A DNA stretch of 63,875 bases, the filler included, from Neolecta irregularis DAH-3 (taxonomy: Eukaryota), in assembly GCA_001929475.1 (NCBI GenBank). It is 15 parts of 15 records of this genome, joined end to end, with 100 filler letters (N's around TTAATTAATTAA, not from the genome) between each part and the next. Parts side by side here need not be neighbours in the genome. Positions count along the whole stretch, not along the records: positions 51,925 to 53,384 come from LXFE01002256.1; 14 more parts are not named here. One strand, given 5' to 3'. The translations under genes were made by a program, and so were the position numbers. This document shows, piece by piece, positions 16,827-57,727 of this stretch (position 1 is its first letter; every line of letters starts with the position of its first letter). Under the pieces are notes generated by a model. It was not told the origin of the DNA. It saw only the letters and a program-made list of their open reading frames with translations, and did no database searches.

Positions 16827-18015
16827 ATGTTGAAAGAGTCATCCCCTGTTCTTTCCGATGCAGCGACCTTTGTATATCCACAAACGACATCCAAATCCGA
16901 GCTGCCTGGACATGAACAGACCCTGTCAATAAGCAGTCTCCCTCGAGATAAACTCTTCATTGAGGTCGATTGTATACAAGCCTATCCGCGGACCGAGAAG
17001 AACTTTACTTTTGTGCTTGTCCAGGGGGAAATCTGTCTTGACAGAATCATAAGAGGCAGGATTGTACTATGCCTGTCGCACCCTTTGCTTGCAAAGAGAA
17101 TCATCGCGAGCGTCAAAGCCACCAAGTCCATTATTCTGAAAGATAAATCCTTGATCAGGAACTTGGGACATCGCCATGAAGAAACGCTTTGGAATCGAGT
17201 TTGTACATGTCTCTGATTAATTAATTACTATTAAGGTTACAAGTGTCTGGACAGGCGATATTATTCCCGCTAACACGCCGCTCGAATTTCCATTCTCCGT
17301 AACGATTCCTTCGACACTGCCTCCGTCACTTCAGCTTAGCAATGGATCTTTTACTTACACAGTAAAAGTCTATACATCCAGAGGGCTGCTCCACAAAGGC
17401 ATCTCCGGAACGCCACTGATATCACAAATTGTCTTCGTCAATGTGCCTGCGCCAATACCTCTCGAGTCCCTCGAACATCAGCCATCCCAAACTCTTCATT
17501 ACGCATATCCAATGTCATCACGCTTCAGCGTCCATTTTACAATCCCGACAACAGTACATATAAACTCACGCGATGACAAGGGTGATCTTCCAGTAGCCGT
17601 TCATTTCACCTCACATCCTCCTGGCACCCGATTGCCAGAATTCTTGAGTTTTGAATGGACGCTCATCCAGCATGCTCGTTTCACATTTCGGTCAACAGTT
17701 ACTCAACAGGGATCCCTTCATAACCTTGATTCGACAACTAAAATAATGAGCGGCAGAGAAATCATTAGTACGACATTGCAGACGGCAGTAGCAACAAAGG
17801 TGTTTCATATCTCATTGACAAATTCCTTCATCGCTGCTGGAGATATGAAATCTCAACATATCGAGATTAGCCACAGCCTTGATGTTTCTGTTTTACGAGC
17901 ACAGTGCCTTAAATGGTGGAAATCGATGAGATACAAAAATGACAAAAGGAAATGGACCGTTAGCGTTCCAATTACAATCTTGGATAGTATTGAAGGAAGC
18001 CTCTACCACTCATAA
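16827..18015 (+). CDS. Arrestin-N-like (alpha-arrestin related) protein
   Basis: IRGRIVLCLSHPLLAKRIIASVKA, then after one intron (about 17199-17236) EFPFSVTIPSTLPPSLQLSNGSFTYTVKV, typical of arrestin N domains. The frame continues into ORF 17443-18015. Confidence 0.6.
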
Positions 18016-22174: not shown

Positions 22175-23307
22175 TCAAAGATCTTCTTCGTGCTCTCTAA
22201 ACCGACTAATGCTTGAACCGTCATGAACAGCTAGACTTCTACCGACCGGATCTTGGAGGGGTGGGACGGTAATGGACGGTAGTTCGGAAATAGGGCAAGG
22301 TCTGTCTGAATTGCGAAAGTGTGTTGCTGTAGAACCCAGGCGGCCAGGTGGATATATAGATGTCGGCGAGTCGCCGCTACGGCGATCTGAATACTGGAGA
22401 TCTTGTTCACTGGATGTTCTTCGTCCAGAGATAACAACGAATTCGGGGGATGGAGGAGATGTGGTTAGATGTTCGGGTGTGGAATTTCGGTGCAATAGGG
22501 AGGCGAGGAACTTAGAATGTGGAGTAAGTGATGCCAAACTTGATGACCGATCTTGTTGATGCAACGAGATTTGGTGTCTGCGACGACGCAATAAATATAG
22601 TAAAGCAATAAGGATTAATGCAGAACCAGCAAGACATCCAACCACTCCTCCGACAACCTTTTGGTTTACTGGAGTTAGTCCGCCTCCGCTACCCGTATCG
22701 GAAGGTGAATTGGACGATGGGGTTCCTAAAGATGATGACGGAGGTAATTGTTTCGCAGCGGGCGGCACAGGGGGTAAGGGTAAAGCTGATGATAAAGTGG
22801 TAGCCTGCAACTCAATCGTGGAGGTTACCGGAGACTGAGTAGTAGCATATGAAATTCGAGAACCATTGAACAGTAGATAACTAGTATTCAATGCTTGAGT
22901 AGTGTTGATAGATATGCTCAACAAAGTACAATTGCCAATACAAGTACCATTCGAGTATAGAGAGGGAGGAGTCGTGGTGTCCGCCGACAACGTGGGAGTC
23001 ACTGAAATTAATCAGCGGCTATTTACCCAAGGAAATATATACCCAAACTATCATTCAAAGTCGTTGCCACTTTTTCAATTTGGGTTTCCAGCTTCAGGCT
23101 GCGAGGTTCCGATATGTCTTCTTCTGGAGCTCCTGTTTGGAAATTATCGACAGCCCGAGCCTGGAAGCCCCTGAATGTCTTTGAAGGGGTTAATATTATG
23201 GAAGTGACACTGTGCTCTGGTAACCTAGCGCCTTCTGAAGACTCATTATGATGGTGTGCATGGCGTTTACTGCGCGACCTGGGGTACTCCTGGTCTGATG
23301 CAGTCAT
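22175..23307 (-). CDS. Ser/Thr/Pro-rich single-pass membrane protein (Mid2/Axl2-like topology)
   Basis: S/T-rich region, then TM VVGGVVGCLAGSALILIALLYLL followed by RRRRH and a cytoplasmic tail. One intron near 23000-23040. The start codon is uncertain. Confidence 0.55.
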
Positions 23308-26403: not shown

Positions 26404-29164
26404 TTAAAATCCAGCGACGACGGCTCCTCCTTCGATTTTACTTTCCCAGTATTTACTGTAATTGTGCATCACGTCTTCTGGGCTTTGTGTAAAAAATGGA
26501 TCCCACGGTTCTTCTTCTTGCTCTTGTTGAATCGGTTGAGAACTCGGACGTAAACTCTCGTCAACTTTTGGCAGCGCCTCGGTTTCAGATGAAGATTGTT
26601 CAGTTGGTTCAGCAGACGGTTCATCGAATAATGAATCTTTATCGTCATCTGGACTAGAGATATTAGGAAATAAACTTTCCACTGCAAAAGATTCAGTTGA
26701 TTTGCCTTCATCTTCTTTTGGAGAAGTAAATAAAAACGGTTGGGGAGTTTTCAACAAGGCATTAGGTGAAACTCCCTTTCCTGATTCGCCCAACGAACCG
26801 GGTACCCCGAGTTTGGAATTTTTAAAAGTACAAGGTGATGATGCGCAAGATCCTTTATCCAATGTTGAAAATAAATATTCCCAAGGCGAACAAGTTGCAT
26901 TTTGTAATTCTTTTCGTTCTTGGGCTTCGCGGTCGAGCTGTTTGGCAACGTTATCTTCTTGTACGGGGGGTTGAACGGTAACAGTTGGAGCTGATACTGG
27001 ATTTTCTTTTGGAGTTACTAATTCAGGTGCAGCTGATTGGGCAGGAGGTGAAATCTTCTTCTTTTTGGAAGGGGGTAGCTTAAGATCGGATATCGTGTGT
27101 TTCATAGCAGCAGCCACGAATGAAGGAGACGAACTCTCGATAGGTATAGGGTTTGCAGCAGCGATTGGTGCGGCGGCGCCTCCATGCTGTTGTTGGCGAG
27201 CAGCTACAGCAGAAGCAGCTGATTTTGCAATATTTTTGGGAGTGGGCAATGGGTTTCCTTCTTTGAGAGCGTTATGTGCATTCGAAACATATCCTCTGAC
27301 GAACTGAAAGTATTTTCCTATTTGTTCGCGCATTTTCGTGAGATGTCCTGGTGTCATGATGAATATATTCTGAGCAAGCTTTTCATGTTGTTCTTTAAAC
27401 ATGTTTTTCTGAATGATTAATATAACAAAATACAGCTTTAATACCAGCCAGATGAGTCGTTTGGTGTTGTCTTCGCTGCCAGTAATTTGCAAGAATAATG
27501 GACATAGAGCTTCGATGCGAGTATACATTGGATGCATTGAACAAATTCCCTCTCGAACAAGAGCCTGATCTTGGGGAGATAAAGCGATTGGCGAGTTTCG
27601 AACTGGGTTTTCAAGAACCTGTTTAGATAAAATTTGGACTCGTTTTTCCAATCCCTCGGTGTTATTTTTGCCGCCTTGGGCGAGGATACGCTGCACAACT
27701 TGGGTTTCTGCGATTTGTGCAGGTCGAACGGCGGCAGGGGGTGAAGGAGGATGAGGGAGTTTCATCTTTGGTGTTGAGACGGTCTTTTTCTTTGGCGTCA
27801 TGGCTGGAGTCTTTGTGGATTTTGGGGGAGAAGTGGCAGACTGTTGGGGTCGAGGGGGTTGATAGGAGTGACCAGCCTGGCGTTGGTTTTGGGCATTTAG
27901 CCAGGCCTGCTGTAATATTCTGGCGTGGACTTGGTAAAAGTTTTTGGATTGTTCGAGGAGTTGGGGTGTTAGTTCGCCCTTTCTAGCGAGTTCGTGAACT
28001 TGGGTCCAAGTGCGAATGCCGTCGGGCAAGCCTTGCATTTTTGCGAGGAGAGGGGGAGGGATTGGGTTATTTCCTGGTTCGAGGTTTGCGATGATATTTG
28101 AGGAAATGAGATTTTGGGGGGCTTGAATCTGGTGCTGGTAGGAGGGCAGCTGTGACTGGGGCCTGGGGGCTTGAGTGGAGAGCAGGTTGTGCTGGTTGAT
28201 GCGTTGTGTAGTCAGGTGTTCTTCCCAAGGAAGGAGGAATTTGCGGTACAAGGCTTCGAGCTGCAAGGCGGAGCTGAGTTCGAAGCCTAGGGCGAGGCCT
28301 AGTTTTGCCCAGTTTTGGCTTGTCTGCTGAGCTTTGTAGCCGCCACTTTTGTTGACGAAAAAGTAGAACTGGTAGAGATTGACGTGGCGGCCGCCTATTT
28401 TTGGGACCTGGTCGATGGGGGTGCCTCGTGCTTTCATGAATTCTGAGAGGGACTGGAAGAACATTTGCTGGGTTGCGTTTATCATTTCTGGGGAGAAGGC
28501 TGGGTTTGCGGGAGGGCGAGGTTGGGAGGGTCTCTGCTGGTGTGTGGCCGAATTGAGGAGGCCCATTTGGGGGGGTTGGACCAGCTGGGGTTGGGGCGGG
28601 GACTGGTGGGGTTGTGGTTGCTGCTGGTGCATACGTAGGGCAAACTGGGGGTTTTGCAGTTGGGCAGCTGAGGACTGTTGGACCATGACCTTGCCGTAGG
28701 CCTGTTGCATAGCGGCAGAGAGCTGCTGCTGCTGCTGTTGCTGTTGTTGCTGTTGTTGCTGTTGCTGCTGCTGTTGTTGCTGTTGCTGCTGCTGCTGCTG
28801 CTGGGACAGCGACTGCAGGGGTCGCGGGACGGAAGCGGAGCGGGCTGTGATCTGGGCCTGGAGCTGCTGGATCTTGCTCTGGCAGACCTGCAGGTACATG
28901 GGCTGGGGTTAGCAGGGCCGAGAGGGCGGGGTACGCCGGAGGAGGCGGAGGTGAATGCGGTGGTCTCGAACCTGCGGACGACGGCGAGGGCCTGTTCTGG
29001 GGGCACCGCGGGCTGGGCGGCGGTGTAGCAGTTGAGGCTACGGTCAGGCCGGGCCGGGAGGGGCGGTACAGCATGGCAATTGCATTCTGGCGGTCCTGCT
29101 GGGAGACATGGGCATGCCAGGCGCGGTCGAGGGGGTCGCGGAGGGGCATGGCGGGGTTGTGCAT
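26404..29164 (-). CDS. MED15: Mediator subunit Med15/Gal11 with KIX, polyQ, inserted ARID domain, ABD1 and C-terminal Med15 region
   Basis: KIX-like WHAHVSQQDRQNAIAMLL...VRRFETTAFTSASSGPMYLQVCQSKI, assembled via 32-nt introns 29038-29069 and 28903-28934. Gal11 ABD1-like IPPPLLAKMQGLPDGIRTWTQVHELARKGELTPQLLEQSKNFYQVH. C-terminal segment LFLQITGSEDNTKRLI...IFIMTPGHLTKMREQIGKYF. Confidence 0.8.
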
Positions 29165-47995: not shown

Positions 47996-48352
47996 TAGTT
48001 GTCCTTTCGTTTCACTTCAAATAATCAAACATGAACACTCAAGTCGCTATCTTATCGATTGTACTAGCTCTCTCATGCCCATTTGTGGTAGTGGGCAAGT
48101 GTCCTGATAGCGACGGGATAGTTCCTTTTTGTACTGTGAATGTTAAATCATCGGCCCCCACGCCGACGAGTTAGTTCTTTGTTGTTGGGGTTAGTTCTTT
48201 GTTGTCACTTTGTCAACTTCAAAGCCNNNNNNNNNNNNNNNNNNNNNNNNNNNNNNNNNNNNNNNNNNNNTTAATTAATTAANNNNNNNNNNNNNNNNNN
48301 NNNNNNNNNNNNNNNNNNNNNNNNNNTACTCTATTATCATGCATACAAACTA

Positions 48353-49555
48353 TTACAAAAATAGCTGCGTCTGACCATTGTTTATGGTTATGGCAGTTAA
48401 AGCGCCAGTTTTGGCCTTTTTGAACAAACTGGTGTGAAACCGACGGGCTCGAATCTTTTCATATACGCTAGAGAGCACTGCTGTTACGATATCGCGATAC
48501 ATTATTGTCTCCCGGGTACACGGAATCCACAGTGAGAGAGACCGAGGTCGAAAGAGTACCTCTGCCACGGTGATCAATACTACTGTAGCAATCGATTGCT
48601 CATCATTTGCGCTGGAGAGAAGGGTAGCCATAGTTGGACAATAAGGAATCGTGGCAAGCCGGCCACCACGGGCCACTGCGTTTTTATATAGATCCAAAGC
48701 ATGATTCTTCTGTTTATAGTCGATTTGAAAGTAGGATGGTGCTATTGTAGCTTGGATAAAATTTTTTAGTGATTCAGTGTGCCATAATATTTCATAATTG
48801 TTAGGGCCGAATGAAACGATCAGCAGGTTCAAGTTTTTACTTTGAATGAAAAGGGTCTTGTTGGTTGGATCGTAAAAAGTGGAGACATCTTGTTCAGCAT
48901 TCTTGCTGAATATTTCGAGAAAAGTGAATACAATAGTGTCAAACCCTCTCAATAAGGTGTCTGAGTTGGTCGAATGCTGTGCCCATGAAATCAAGGGTAG
49001 GTCCATAAGTTGTCGTACAATATTTACCGACATTGGTGGTTCGCCATGCATGACAATGTTGCCGACCCTTAGAACTTGTTGATCTAACAGTTTTTGATCG
49101 GAAGATCGTTCCGATAGCCCATATTTAGTTTGAATTTCACTAGTCCAATCTTTTTCATCATTGTGAGAAAACCTTGCAGCAAGGTCTGAACTTGATCTGG
49201 CTGACGTGTCCTAGTATCAGAAATCTACATGCCTTGCGAGCATTTACACATATAACAGCACTTCAAACTCGGAATCAGAAGGACTAGAGATCCAGTTTGC
49301 CTCAGATGTGGTAAACATTTGACATTCTTTCGGAAATTGGCCATGAACGATAAAAGAGTGGCAAAAGTATGGGATCAACAGGCATTGCCGCGCGCATTCT
49401 TCTTTTGCTTGGTACTTGTCCATATCCTGGAGATCGAAATAGTGTGATTTCTGCTGCTTTATAGTGACTCGGGTTGAAATCTCTGTGAAATTCTCGAGAT
49501 ATTTTGCCGCGCTGATAGTACAAAGTGTGATCAAACAGAGGACCTTGAGCATCAT
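48353..49555 (-). CDS. Secreted PAN/Apple-domain protein, probably spliced to a C-terminal domain of unknown type
   Basis: Signal peptide MMLKVLCLITLCTISA and PAN pattern EECARQCLLIPYFCHSF...ECQMF. A 39-nt GT-AG intron (49211-49249) would join it in frame to ORF 48353-49051. Confidence 0.6.
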
Positions 49556-50035
49556 GTTGGATATGTTGAACTAGGGTACCAGATAGATTGTCAGGTTCAT
49601 ATAGGGAATCTGTATATAGGTTTTTTTCTAGTTTCAGATCTTTGATTTAAGTTTTACCCTGAAACAGTTCTGCTGCTAAGCCGCTTCTCATTTTGGCTTC
49701 TTTAGTTCAGATTATATTCTACGGCATGATACGTTGTACCTTGCGAAATAGTTGGGTTTGTAATTTCGGAAGACAAGTGGGGTTGGTCGATGAGGATTGG
49801 AATCGCCTTGACGCAGGACGTGATTTAGGTGTATGAAGGCGGTTTCAGGGATTTATTGAGGATACGCGGTAGGGAGGCTGTTTGTAGTGACCCAAGTGGA
49901 CTAGTGTGTATTCTGTGGGAGGGAAGGGTATGCGAAATATAGGATAGTCAGCCTTGAAAAGAAATCCATTATTACCGCCATCAAAATGCTAGCATATCAA
50001 CATCCAAATGAAATAATGATAATTTAGAGTATGTA

Positions 50036-50530
50036 TCACTGTGGGAGATATTCTACAACGGCTACATATAATTCACACACCAAACCCAATAAAAAGTCAT
50101 TTTTCTCGCGTTCGCGCAAGAGTTCTTGTGTTAGCCGAGAATTAAACTTTTTGAGTTCTCGAATCCTGCCGACGCCCAATTTCCTCAGGACTTTTTTGAC
50201 GCTGGTCGGGATATTTTTGTCATCGGTGTATCTTGTGCGTTTGGCGATGTGGGAGTCATGGATTGGTGGCGATGTGGCGTTTGCATAGGTGTGGATGCAT
50301 GTTTCTGCTTTCCGCTTCAATGTCGAGTATAATGCAAGTTTATTTGTTGTTTTACTGGAAACTGTGATTTCGAGGAAGCTCTGAGTTGCTCCATGTGGGG
50401 GTTGGGGGGCAGGGTCGAGGTCTTGAGGAGGGCTGGGGAATGCGCGGATAATATCCGAGGTAATTCTGCGGTTAGGAGTATTGAAGAAGAGTTTTTACGT
50501 GGGGACAGAGGCCTTGCTTGTGGCGGACAT
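50036..50530 (-). CDS. Hypothetical protein with C-terminal coiled coil
   Basis: MSATSKASVPT, a 33-nt intron, then an open frame to ...IRELKKFNSRLTQELLREREKNDFLLGLV. Confidence 0.4.
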
Positions 50531-51015: not shown

Positions 51016-51824
51016 TCACCAGCCTCTGTCGGCGAGGCGGTCTTCTTTGCTGATGGCTGCGCAGCTGATGCCGACCATAGCTTCGCCGAGGCCCTCGCTG
51101 ACCTTTGCAAGGATTTGCGGATCCTGCGGCGTTGGAGGAGGTTAGGGGCGGGGACATGCCTTGTAGTGGGTAGTGGCCTGGACGATCGCCCTTGCGCGCT
51201 GGGCGGCATCGCCGCTCTTGAAGATGCCGCTGCCGACGAAGACGCCGTCTGCGCCGAGCTGCATCAGCAGGGCGGCGTCGGCGGGGGTTGCGATGCCGCC
51301 GGCGGCGAAGTTGACGACGGGCAGGCGCCTGAGGCGCGCGGTTTCCTTGAGCAGGTGGAACGGCGCATTGAGCCGGGCGGCGAAGACGTGCAGCTCCTCG
51401 TCGGTCATGGCGGCGGCGCGGCGGATCTGGCTGTGCAGGGCGCGCATGTGGGTGACGGCGGAGCCCACGTCGCCGGTGCCGGCCTCGCCCTTGGTGCGGA
51501 TCATGGCGGCGCCCTCCGCAATGCGGCGCAGGGCCTCGCCGAGGTCGCGGCAGCCGCAGACGAACGGGATGCGGAACGGGTGCTTGGTGATGTGGTGCGC
51601 GCAGTCGGCCGGCGTCAGCACCTCGGACTCGTCGATGTAGTCGACGCCCACGGCCTCGAGGATCTGCGCCTCTGCAAAGTGGCCGATGCGGCACTTGGCC
51701 ATGACGGGCACCGTGACGGCGGCGATGATCTCGCGGATCCGCGCCGGGTCGCTCATGCGGGCCACGCCGCCCGCCGCGCGGATGTCGGCCGGCACCCGCT
51801 CGAGCGCCATGACGGCGCAGGCGC
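51016..51824 (-). CDS. SNZ1: Pyridoxal 5'-phosphate synthase subunit Snz1/Pdx1 (5' truncated by contig end)
   Basis: [84 protein letters not shown]. The last exon follows GC-AG intron 51124-51159 and ends LADRGW. Confidence 0.97.
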
Positions 51825-51924: not shown

Positions 51925-53182
51925 AGTTGTTCCACAAGAGGGTAATGCTAATCGACTCGGCGCTCACCGAGATTCTGGTTTGTAAATAACCGCTAGACAT
52001 GAACTAATAGATTGCAGGATCTCACGTTGGTCCTAAGCAGTCGCTACCACCAAGTAAGCCCCCCGGTAGAACTTTCGAGGATAAGAGTGATGGAAAGAGA
52101 GTAACTTTCGAAGACAAAGATAACAAAGGCTTTGTGACAGTTAAACCATCCGGGCCACCACCACCTCCATCGAAAGAGATCTTTGAAGCTTATGCCAGTA
52201 AAACGAAGATAACCACCGCAGTCGGGAAGGGTGGCCCATCTGGAATCGATAAACCGAAAGACAAAGGAAAACAAGTCGTAAAAACCGATGGTGACTTCAC
52301 ATCGCAACCCTGAAGCTAACCCCAGGCACCGACCATCTTGCGGCTATAAGGACCGGCGTAACATTAAAGGCACTAGGTGATCGAGCAAAGAGCGAAGAAC
52401 CCCAAGGTGACTTCATGGAAGAGCTAAGAAAGGCCCAATCAAAGAGGCTAAAGAAACCTGATCCTGTGGAGGGGGGCGTTCTTGGGCCGATCAAGAAGAG
52501 TCCAGATCTTCCACCACCGCGGGGACCGTCGACCAGTAAAGCAGGCCCGAGTTCATCTGGCTTGAAGTCAGCTATACCAGGCCCGAGTTCATCTGGAGGG
52601 TCAACTATACCAGGCCCTAGTTCATCTGGCTTAGGGCCACCACCACCTCCGACAATGAGAATTGAAGATTGGGAATCCAATAAAACGAAGAAAATCCCCC
52701 TAGTCGGGAAGGTTGACCTAGCTGGAGACATATCAGGAACGAAGCTGAATTCAGCTCAAGATAACAAAATCGACAAAGGAAAACAAATCGTAAAACCCCA
52801 GGATGATTTTATGGGAACACTAAAGGATAACCTAACCCGTAAGCTAAAGCCAGTTTCCACAGGAGAACGGGAAAAACCATTAGAAAAGGAAAACCCGACG
52901 CCGACCAGTACGATCGTCAGCAATCAGGAAATGCTTCGCACAGCATTGCTGCTCGCTAGCAAAAAGGTCCAGAAGGGAGATGTTGATGATGAAATCGGTG
53001 ATGATCAAGATGATGATGAAAGTGAAGTCGAAAAACAGAAGCCGAAACCAGAAGATAACAAAGCCGACAAAGTAAAGGATAACACAGCTCGCGATCTTTT
53101 GAAGAACATCGTTGGCACAATGGCCACGGTTGAAATTGATGATAAAAAGGAAGCTGGCATTGAAGATGAAACATGGACATAG
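51925..53182 (+). CDS. Pro-rich protein with three WH2-like motifs and acidic Trp-containing C-terminus (WASP/VCA-like), 5' truncated
   Basis: Introns 51978-52017 and 52291-52325 give one frame containing GPPPPP, DHLAAIRTGVTLKAL, DFMEELRKAQSKRLKKP, PGPSSSG repeats, GPPPPP, DFMGTLKDNLTRKLKPV, an acidic tract and the end GIEDETWT. Confidence 0.65.
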
Positions 53183-53246
53183 GGTAGTGCCTAGGAGTGT
53201 GATAATTTCTTCGTGTCTGACTTGGCCGAGTTGTGGTTTCGCGAGA

Positions 53247-53360
53247 TGTCTGTTTGTTTGTTTGTTAGTCGAACTTGTCTGTTTGTTTGTTTGTTAGTCG
53301 AACTTGTCTGTTTGTTTATTTGTTAGTCGTACTTGTCTGTTTGTTTGTTTGTTAGTCGTA
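53247..53360. repeat. 29-bp tandem repeat x4 (TGTCTGTTTGTTTGTTTGTTAGTCGAACT)
   Basis: Directly visible. Confidence 0.92.
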
Positions 53361-54282
53361 GTTGCTAATTCCTGTTTCCTGTCTNNNNNNNNNNNNNNNN
53401 NNNNNNNNNNNNNNNNNNNNNNNNNNNNTTAATTAATTAANNNNNNNNNNNNNNNNNNNNNNNNNNNNNNNNNNNNNNNNNNNNCTTTTCCATCCAATCC
53501 CAGTCAAAAACAATATCAGTAGTTGGCAAGGAAGAGCTAAATATATTGTTAGTGGATGGTGCTGGAATATTGTAACAATTCCAGTCTTTATTAAAGTGCT
53601 TCGGATTTGCAACGACGAGGCGGGCAAGCAGGGCCAGAGAGTGAGGGTCAAGTGGGCAGTGGACTGGAAGAGGCAGGCGAGTGTGGTGAGAAGAATGAGA
53701 AGAGTGAGGAGGGGAGTTGGCGGGGAGGGGGCGGAGGTGGTCATGGCGTGGATGATAGGGTGGTTGAGAAAGGTGTAGTGCTGGCACTGTGAAAGGGAGC
53801 AGGCAGCGAGGTGCAGGTGGTGGATGGGGCTGAGGATGATGATGCGGCAGGCGCAGGGCAACCAGTGCAGGCAGGCGTAGGCGTGGGTCAAAGTGAGAAC
53901 AGTGGGGCCGCTGTATGCCCAGCCCGTGTGGGGCTGACAAGCTTATAATGTCTTCAACGAATTTTTACCACAGGCATCGCCACCCAGCCGATCAATAGGG
54001 AGGCAAATGGGCAGATGACGGTATCAGCACATGGGCCGAGTCTGTATATAACTAGCGCCTAGCTGGACTAGCTGGCTAGGCTTTAACCTGATATTCAATT
54101 TCCATAGTTACTCTTATTTGCAGTATCTACAGCAGCATATCCAATCTAAATCTCCATCAGCTCCCACCCTAAGGTCGTGTTCTGACAGTTGAGGTCAAAG
54201 CAAAAGGCCTCGATAAGAACTCGTGCAAATCCATGCCTGTAGTCTGGTCAGTGACTTTCAGTAGCAAGACTCGAATGGGGAC

Positions 54283-56508: not shown

Positions 56509-57727
56509 GCATTCCAGATCAATGCACATTGGAGCTACTATAAGCATACCATAACGACCCTTCAAGTGGCCACCCTGGACCTAGGAAATTACTATCGGCA
56601 TTGGTAAAAAAGTTTTATTGGAAGAAGATATCTGCGCAAGTAGATGATTTCTGCAATTCGTGTATGGTATGCGCTAAAGTAAAGGTAGATACCAGAAAAA
56701 AAGCAGGACTGCTAAAACCCCTAGAGATCCCAGAGGAACGCTGGTTAGAGATCACCATGGATTTCGTTACTGGACTACCGAAAATAAAAGGATATGATGC
56801 AATACTGACCGTCGTCGATAGAGCAACCCGGAGTTGCCACTTTTGGCCTTCGAAGACAACATGTTCAGCAAAAGAACTTGCAAAATTACTTCTAGATTGG
56901 TATTACCAGTTACATGGGATCCCCAAATCAATCATATCGGATAGGGGCCCACAGTTCGACTCAAAGTTTTGGCAAGAGTTTTGGAAATTGATTGGAACAG
57001 ATATTAAACTCTCGACGGCATACCACCCACAGACGGATGGATTATCAGAAAGGATGAACAGGGTCGTCGAAGATTATTTAAAGATGTTCATCGAAAAAGA
57101 TGCCAATTGGTTATCCCTGCTAGCAACAGCAGAATTCGCGTACAACAGCTCGGTTTCGGCATCTCTTGGATTCACCCCATTTGAAGTTGACCCAGGATAT
57201 AATCCGCGGTCAACTAAGGACCTCAAGTACAGAGGTTCTAACCCCTCAGTAATGGAGTTCTCAGCAGAGCATCAGAGGATATTCGATAATGCCCAGGCTG
57301 CATTGGCTAGAGCACAACAAGCTCAGAAAATGCAAGCTGACAGACATAGGAGAACAGACAGCTTTCAAGAGGGGGACAAGGTTTTTCTATCAACAGAAAA
57401 CCTGAGGGTAATCCCAGAGGGAAAGCAGCAGATGCTGCCACCAAAACTACAAGTGAGGTACGAAGGACCGTTTAGGATCTAAAGGAAATTATCTGAATTA
57501 AATTACGAACTTGAGCTCCCTCCATCATCACGCATCCACCCTGTCGTACATATATCGCGATTGAAAAGGAAAACTGAAATGGCAGAAACAGTCAAACGGG
57601 ACCTACCACCACCAGGGCCATCAAAAATCTACAGTGATAGATCCGGAGAATACGAACTGGAAGCTATTCTCGACTGTAAAAGAGCCGGGAATGGGTATAA
57701 GTACCTGGTAAGGTGGAAAGGTTACAG
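56509..57727 (+). mobile_element. Degenerate Ty3/Gypsy chromovirus pol fragment: integrase (HHCC, DDE, GPY/F) plus chromodomain
   Basis: YHNDPSSGHPG...CNSCMVC, ITMDFVTGLP, IISDRGPQF, STAYHPQTDGLSERMN, YEGPFRI* (stop 57480-57482), IHPVVHISRLK and EYELEAILD...KYLVRWKGYS. Confidence 0.95.

Follow-up and report, generated by a model that had tools for sequence, protein, structure and literature searches.

Locus and assembly setting

The window examined here is a 63,875-base stretch of DNA from Neolecta irregularis DAH-3, composed of 15 contigs (1032-29270 bases) which are not genomic neighbours and are separated by spacers, N runs around TTAATTAATTAA. One whole piece, 51925-53384 (1460 bases, GC 0.46), is filled by the gene NEOLI_005390, whose 372-aa product NCBI calls a 'hypothetical protein' and UniRef a 'WH2 domain-containing protein'; coordinate 51925 is the first base of the contig, not the start of the gene. 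Together with a paralog, NEOLI_005224, the gene may represent a family of actin-assembly adaptors carrying a module like the WH2-central-acidic (VCA) module of WASP. The genome paper describes the N. irregularis assembly as 14.5 Mb in size (N50, 16 kb; GC, 44%), obtained from fruiting-body DNA and RNA (PMC5309816). Repeats lie on both sides of the gene, which accounts for its standing alone on a tiny contig.

51925..52009, + strand: 5' element present in many copies; these 85 nt are a single copy of a ~92-nt unit arrayed head-to-tail; assembly breakpoint
53247..53358, + strand: 29-nt tandem repeat in the 3' flank, 3.9 copies, 96% matches; the contig ends just beyond

Contigs from two public sequencing runs, X1 and X2, both labelled 'DNA?', were compared with the locus. 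The first 85-95 bases of the contig were present at 8-24 times single-copy depth in X1 (3588-10991 against a baseline of 450) and at 8-13 times in X2 (973-1584 against 125). A joint that returned from 52009 to 51925 across 7 intervening letters defined the 92-nt head-to-tail unit (depth 1951 in X1 and 325 in X2), and differing sequences abutted the element at 51953, 51966, 51982, and 52018 in contigs of the public runs. The intron-like bin 51974-52022 reached ~24 times single-copy depth with flanks that differed on either side, as a repeated intron or an exon-intron array would. A 38-nt piece of the 5' unit occurred a single time within the window, and an Rfam search of the contig yielded three weak matches, all far under their gathering scores, with none on the 5' repeat. 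The 29-nt repeat was likewise over-represented in X1, at 2015-4660 versus 450, or 4-10 times the depth of the gene. Other contigs of the public runs were 85-94% alike to the gene over 52128-52207, 52200-52325, and 52570-52652, one of them with a CTT insertion after 52596 and another tracking the gene to the end of intron 2 before diverging; additional copies or alleles of the NEOLI_005390 family therefore probably exist.

Gene model and introns

The following gene model was compared with the contigs of both runs and with the deposited annotation.

51927..51977, + strand: putative 17-codon exon, 51 nt; possible tandem repeat with a 41-nt intron
51978..52017, + strand: putative intron 1, 40 nt, GTTTGT..CTAAT..AG; unconfirmed
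52018..52290, + strand: exon 2, with KRVTF, PPPPP, and the first KTK..KGKQVVK copy; an X2 contig is colinear over 52005-52289
52291..52325, + strand: intron 2, 35 nt, GTGACT..CTAAC..AG; confirmed by an X2 contig
52326..53182, + strand: exon 3, to the stop TAG at 53180-53182; an X2 contig covers 52325-53245 with 0 other letters

A preliminary description of the region had proposed two short introns joining it into one frame, and of these the second was borne out. Intron 2 is the sole GT-AG pair linking the two long frames, and a 1206-nt contig of X2 followed 52005-52289 and then 52325-53245 with 0 differences, skipping exactly 35 nt with GT..AG ends (one contig, junction depth 125, side depth 255). 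The unspliced colinear form was found in X1 as a 1243-nt contig, and independent contigs of both runs reproduced 52003-53245 with 0 differences. Given the spliced form and a smaller contig total (11 million letters, versus 96 million for X1), X2 behaves like cDNA, though without proof; should X2 in fact be DNA, a processed copy would account for the joined form. For intron 1 no joined contig was listed in X1 or X2, although contigs cannot show absence, and an X2 contig of depth 29 ran colinear across it (51961-52034).

Some splice upstream of exon 2 is needed, since the colinear reading has three stops in the exon-2 frame and no in-frame ATG before the second WH2-like motif. The 92-nt unit equals 51 plus 41 nt, the contig opens with AG, and a donor GTTTGT stands at 51978; in the 51-nt putative exon the codon split across copies is Val, the inner codons are free of stops, and the phase is preserved. 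Each unit could, judging from these letters, comprise a 51-nt in-phase exon and a 41-nt intron. The spliced frame stays open over 393 codons, and the N-terminus of NEOLI_005390 lies beyond the contig end. The deposited model begins at an ATG at 51946, inside the repeat, and removes an additional intron at 52054-52097. This segment was kept in the X2 contig and aligned to the paralog protein by tblastn, making the annotated start and the first 24 residues doubtful.

The gene NEOLI_005390 is real, and in N. irregularis it is both transcribed and spliced. An assembly artefact or a pseudogene fragment would account for a tiny contig flanked by repeats, for the missing early ATG in the colinear sequence, and for an annotated start that looks forced. 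It is highly improbable in view of the identical contigs from two runs, the precisely spliced form in one of them, the 393-codon frame that is open after splicing, and the motifs conserved in the paralog. A heuristic intron scan of the window returned 165 overlapping candidates and was noisy; 36-41-nt GT..branch..AG candidates joining frames of at least 100 codons (e.g. 17199-17235 and 23002-23042) were among them, which suggests that short introns (36-42 nt) are usual in the N. irregularis genome.

Protein motifs and architecture

All peptide motifs quoted in the preliminary description were found in one frame, and its PPPPP tracts, two helices, acidic run, and IEDETWT terminus could each be assigned coordinates. 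Helices are those of the AlphaFold2 (AF2) model of the deposited protein, designated P0003.

52095..52109, + strand: RVxF-like KRVTF, in exon 2
52155..52169 and 52637..52651, + strand: PPPPP tracts
52331..52375, + strand: WH2-like motif 1, DHLAAIRTGVTLKAL; AF2 helix at P0003 residues 89-96
52409..52459, + strand: WH2-like motif 2, DFMEELRKAQSKRLKKP; relaxed-pattern match; AF2 helix 115-128, predicted local distance difference test (pLDDT) 51-53
52542..52632, + strand: tandem repeat of 33-nt period, rich in Ser/Gly/Pro; the PPPPP tract at 52637-52651 comes next
52664..52678, + strand: acidic-Trp motif EDWES, kept in the paralog
52775..52855, + strand: KGKQIVKPQ block and WH2-like motif 3, DDFMGTLKDNLTRKLKPV (motif at 52802-52855); AF2 helix 245-260
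52928..52969, + strand: amphipathic helix EMLRTALLLASKKV (EMLR..SKKV); AF2 helix 287-304; aligns with the second WH2-like motif of the paralog
52979..53029, + strand: first acidic run, without Trp
53087..53128, + strand: C-like amphipathic helix (ARDL..TMAT), with L, I, and M three apart; AF2 helix 340-354
53159..53179, + strand: acidic tail IEDETWT, Trp second from the end, followed by the stop

The three WH2 motifs of the preliminary description are present as WH2-like peptides, arranged as a tandem pair with a third ~130 residues further on, and the standing of WH2 domains is not theirs by Pfam, which matched none of them. A module consisting of PPPPP, a KTK..VGK stretch, KGKQ[VI]VK, and a WH2-like motif is duplicated inside the gene (families D3, D6, and D8), and the WH2-like motifs are consequently not independent events. 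The 393 residues include 52 K, 41 P, 39 G, 36 D, and 33 S, with no Cys. Mean AF2 pLDDT was 39 and 45 for the two proteins of the family and the Atlas model of the paralog reached 0.49, low confidences from which the protein is predicted to be intrinsically disordered. The AF2 helices coincided with the WH2-like and C-like segments. In P0003 the two best pLDDT blocks fell on WH2-like motifs 2 and 3, the helix of motif 3 having the highest values of the model (54-60), and in the paralog they fell on an N-terminal hydrophobic segment and the acidic tail.

Relatives and the paralog NEOLI_005224

With phmmer at E<=0.001, a search of all 1,835,955,588 representative proteins yielded two matches, the protein itself and one paralog (E = 4.2e-12). 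A word-indexed search with exon 3 matched 1 of 4639 candidates, and a two-sequence profile recovered 2 of 7999 scored candidates, the same pair. These searches uphold the proposal that the protein is lineage-specific, as well as its stated unlikeness to Wsp1, Vrp1, Pan1, and myosin I, none of which appeared in the exhaustive search; no fungal WASP, Wsp1 or Las17 included, was found at its threshold, and no verprolin or WIP was among the matches. The family is so far known only from N. irregularis, as NEOLI_005390, NEOLI_005224, and probably partial copies.

The paralog (P0004) is NEOLI_005224 of N. irregularis DAH-3, a protein of 241 aa encoded on a 2168-base contig that is absent from the window. 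BLASTP aligned the two proteins at 49% identity over 79 residues (E = 2e-15), and by tblastn residues 68-152 of the paralog matched 52062-52301 in the exon-2 frame. The paralogs are 39-49% identical, with identity peaking in the module from PPPP to LKxV (40/63 aligned positions) and falling to 17/52 in the tail. Both proteins share a fixed order of elements: an acidic-flanked RVxF-like motif (KRVTFED and RKRVAFED), a Ser/Gly-rich stretch with PPPP, EDWES, KGKQ[VI]VKPQDDFM.TL......LK.V, a second helix, a further amphipathic helix, and an acidic tail in which TW is followed by a last 1-2 residues. The second conserved helix forms a good WH2-like motif in the paralog (LLGAI......LKKA) and is degenerate in NEOLI_005390 (EMLRTALLLASKKV). 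The layout of the paralog is the cleaner of the two: PPPP, EDWES, KGKQVVKPQ, DDFMETLQARLKTPNLKRV, EGLLGAIESFNLKTLKKA, an RR-bearing helix, and ..ENDTWLQ as the acidic tail. This tail reads ..DDDEEENDTWLQ, and the last 40 residues hold 12 D+E versus 5 K+R. No Pfam domain whatever was found in the paralog, hence none of WH1.

The paralog bears directly on whether NEOLI_005390 is simply the Wsp1 orthologue of this fungus with its N-terminus beyond the contig. In favour of an orthologue, the succession of poly-Pro, WH2-like motifs, a helix, and an acidic-Trp tail is the C-terminal layout of WASP; the contig does begin inside an open frame and in a repeat, and WASP is the only family member kept by Dikarya according to PMC3298513. 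Against this, the paralog has a like C-terminal layout within 241 residues and no WH1 by Pfam, the exhaustive search was without any fungal WASP match, and the sequence upstream resembles a 17-codon repeated unit, not a long proline-rich region. We consider the orthologue explanation very unlikely.

Tests of WH2 and VCA membership

The descriptions of WH2, the C domain, and the acidic tail used for comparison were taken from the relevant sections of PMC3298513. In structural terms the motifs agree with what is set out there for WH2 and for the acidic tail. The WH2 core that is kept consists of two hydrophobic residues, two others, and one hydrophobic; a basic residue or Gln; a 4-7-residue linker, usually with a hydrophobic; and L-K. 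Both proteins end in an acidic stretch with Trp close to the C-terminus (IEDETWT in NEOLI_005390 and the tail given above in the paralog). Their order and spacing resemble a VVCA module at the level of sequence. The helix and acidic tail of the paralog seem close to the C-A region of WAVE and WASP proteins. Language-model neighbours (Atlas) of paralog residues 140-241 pointed the same way: the three best named clusters carry PF02205 in 81%, 19%, and 16% of their members, with scores of 0.89, 0.88, and 0.84, the first sharing 180/256 features, and the fifth named cluster was a Thymosin cluster (0.75). Relaxed WH2 patterns gave two matches each versus 0.006-0.009 expected from 20000 shuffles, a statistic that is biased because the patterns were composed after the motifs had been seen. 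The UniRef name of P0003, an automatic label, likewise points to WH2.

Several results weigh against membership. The WH2 profile scan proposed in the preliminary description came back empty: Pfam WH2 (PF02205) had 0 matches at E<=10 in P0001-P0004 and five isolated motif segments, although the filters of HMMER may mask very weak ones, and Thymosin (PF01290) had 0 matches in the same set at the same threshold. The published WH2 pattern (Kollmar et al. 2012; 4-10 residue linker) was matched exactly 0 times in the spliced model and in P0004, each motif departing from it at 2-3 of the 10 specified positions; in motif 1, which ends LKAL, a His occupies the first hydrophobic position. A three-motif profile searched against 177,635 PDB sequences gave nine matches at E<=10, none a WH2 or actin-binding chain, while phmmer against the PDB gave one chance match for P0001 (E = 1.5) and zero for P0004. 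None of 353 longer candidates matched the C-terminal 102 residues of the paralog at E<=10. By the rules of the Atlas tool, scores below 0.9 are a lead only, and a set in which 4 of the 10 best share a family is 'probably wrong'; the search with the whole paralog had no usable feature match, and all of its structure matches had TM <0.25. The C domain was judged by eye as three large hydrophobics three apart, an R/K doublet or triplet, and then a hydrophobic. The helix of NEOLI_005390 has L, I, and M with no basic doublet after, and that of the paralog (V...A...I, RR, F) has Ala at the middle hydrophobic position. Finally, a hydrophobic segment of the paralog (residues 13-39), which follows an internal Met20 and is helical in the AF2 model, resembles a signal peptide or membrane anchor and would be out of place in a cytosolic factor. 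WH2 predictions can also err: one preprint, by its title, reports a Rickettsia Sca2 that 'lacks WH2 domains'.

These results lend weight to the possibility that the WH2 and VCA likeness is coincidental, the family being a fast-evolving, low-complexity, disordered protein with another role, such as a secreted or membrane-anchored hyphal or fruiting-body protein, or a scaffold that works through acidic-Trp and basic motifs of another kind. The family-level tests all failed (Pfam, the published pattern, the PDB profile, and the longer-protein search), the composition is strongly biased and lacks Cys, the paralog has its hydrophobic stretch at ~13-39 with Met20, and conservation is best in a block, EDWES..KGKQVVKPQ, that is not part of the WH2-like core and has no known match. 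Coincidence, however, does not readily explain why motif order and spacing were kept between paralogs just 39-49% identical, nor why the nearest named language-model clusters are the WH2 and thymosin families; moreover, the conserved RVxF-like motif, an intracellular-phosphatase dock, favours a cytosolic protein, and the signal-peptide-like stretch is internal in the annotated paralog model. On balance a coincidental likeness is unlikely, yet it has to be taken seriously.

Proposed function and mechanism

With the above in mind, we lean, with slightly less than even confidence, toward a lineage-specific, WH1-less protein with a VCA-like module acting as an actin-assembly adaptor, 'WH1-less' being based on the paralog, in which Pfam finds no WH1. 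In such a protein G-actin would be held by the WH2-like helices and Arp2/3 would be engaged through the C-helix together with the acidic-Trp tail, while profilin or SH3 proteins would dock on the poly-Pro tracts; a VCA-type adaptor of this kind would have arisen, or diverged past recognition, in the Neolecta lineage. A stronger proposal is a second class of Arp2/3 activator in Neolecta, a small WH1-less family that would be independent of Wsp1 and in which WH2-like motifs in tandem, the C-helix, and the acidic-Trp tail would be joined to an RVxF motif docking protein phosphatase 1 (PP1); this proposal is doubtful. Less likely still is a bolder version, suggested by the signal-peptide-like start of the paralog, in which family members would be secreted or anchored in the membrane and would work on actin at the cell surface or outside it.

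The RVxF-like motif also allows the protein to be read as a PP1 regulatory subunit with G-actin as cofactor or signal, following the logic of Phactr and PPP1R15, with the WH2-like helices as actin-binding elements. The motif and its acidic flank are conserved (KRVTFED; RKRVAFED at paralog residues ~78-84) and agree at the motif level with [KR]-[KR]-V-x-F. G-actin joins the PP1-PPP1R15 complex and gives the eIF2alpha phosphatase its substrate selectivity, and PPP1R15B uses KVTF, according to PMC4394352. The motif suggests a link to PP1, either by itself or together with actin binding, and PPP1R15 shows that the two can in principle go together. On the other hand, disordered sequence rich in Lys often contains RVxF-like strings, neither the exhaustive search nor Pfam revealed homology to a PP1 regulator, and the acidic-Trp tail would be left unexplained. 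This makes a PP1 regulatory subunit improbable.

Comparison with known actin-assembly systems

As a VCA-like adaptor, the preferred reading, NEOLI_005390 was compared with established actin-assembly proteins. Like the WASP-family class I nucleation-promoting factors outlined in PMC3298513, it has a proline tract, WH2-like unit(s), an amphipathic helix, and an acidic-Trp C-terminus in the same order, and the two WH2-like motifs of the paralog lie ~29 residues apart. Unlike WASP, WAVE, and WASH, no WH1, SHD, or other N-terminal domain was seen (the N-terminus of NEOLI_005390 being beyond the contig), the published WH2 and C patterns are not strictly matched, and no similarity was detectable in the 1.84 billion proteins. 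In concept the family is similar to WAWH (WASP without WH1; amoebae, Apusozoa, and anole), a VCA-type protein that also lacks WH1; PMC3298513 has WAWH recognised by a GBD (CRIB/WAID) homologous to that of WASP and reports no fungal WAWH. In contrast to WAWH, no GBD-like part was detectable in NEOLI_005390, and no sequence relationship was found.

The yeast proteins Las17 and Wsp1 have a single WH2 according to the preliminary description. They agree with NEOLI_005390 in coming from fungi and, broadly, in their arrangement (poly-Pro, WH2, C, and A), whereas NEOLI_005390 carries multiple WH2-like motifs, an internally duplicated module, and the additional EDWES and KGKQVVKPQ blocks, and its paralog is without WH1. 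More than one WH2-like unit per chain is also a feature of Spire, Cobl, VopL/VopF, and the beta-thymosin/WH2 repeat proteins; unlike the tandem-WH2 nucleators, just two motifs stand in close tandem here, and Pfam WH2 and Thymosin are unmatched. An acidic-Trp tail speaks for action through Arp2/3 and against direct nucleation. Verprolins carry N-terminal WH2s and no acidic-Trp tail. The G-actin-engaging PP1 regulators Phactr and PPP1R15 likewise combine an RVxF-type motif with candidate G-actin-binding helices in a disordered chain (for PPP1R15, see PMC4394352), but differ in showing no homology, in having a different actin-binding element, and in lacking the added acidic-Trp tail.

Significance and novelty

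To our knowledge, Neolecta is the sole member of the Taphrinomycotina, which are mostly yeasts, with complex multicellular fruiting bodies. Dikarya have kept only WASP and lost WAVE and WASH, with extra CA motifs in coronin and myosin I, in the account given by PMC3298513. Finding another VCA family in Neolecta, one that lacks WH1, would for this reason be of genuine interest, although its support lies at the level of motifs and the formal tests of membership failed. If the VCA-like reading is true, such a family would be a new way to build a fungal actin-assembly factor; on the stronger proposal of a second class of Arp2/3 activator, an early-diverging ascomycete with complex multicellularity would exceed the 'WASP only' inventory, with actin assembly coupled to a phosphatase. 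The case shows in addition that motif-only proteins can evade profile searches. If the likeness is superficial, it indicates how easily helix-plus-LKxV strings and acidic-Trp tails arise in Lys- and acid-rich disordered proteins.

The WH2 label itself is already known, as an automatic UniRef name. As far as literature searches reach, the paralog, the helix with its acidic-Trp tail, the RVxF-like motif, the 35-nt intron, the repeat-bounded locus, and the doubtful start are not in print. These searches returned no paper with NEOLI locus tags or accessions and none linking WH2 to Taphrinomycotina, and co-mentions of Neolecta and WASP were unrelated by title. The words 'intron', 'actin', and 'WASP' are absent from the main text of the genome paper (PMC5309816).

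Other features of the window

Pfam analysis of ten other long frames of the window gave no actin and no Arp subunit. Further features were as follows.

51142-51822, - strand: SOR/SNZ frame (PdxS-type pyridoxal phosphate synthase), Pfam E = 2.7e-87, at the end of the adjoining piece
56544-57482, + strand: retroelement integrase (Integrase_H2C2, rve), on a 1415-base contig
26404-28908, - strand: 834-codon open frame with a long poly-Gln run

The piece with the SOR/SNZ frame has 72% GC over 51127-51526 versus 39-45% in its first 2 kb (48327-50326), and could be a chimeric contig, a contaminant, or the site of an unusually GC-rich gene. The end of the 29-kb contig is GC-rich and Pro/Ala-rich.

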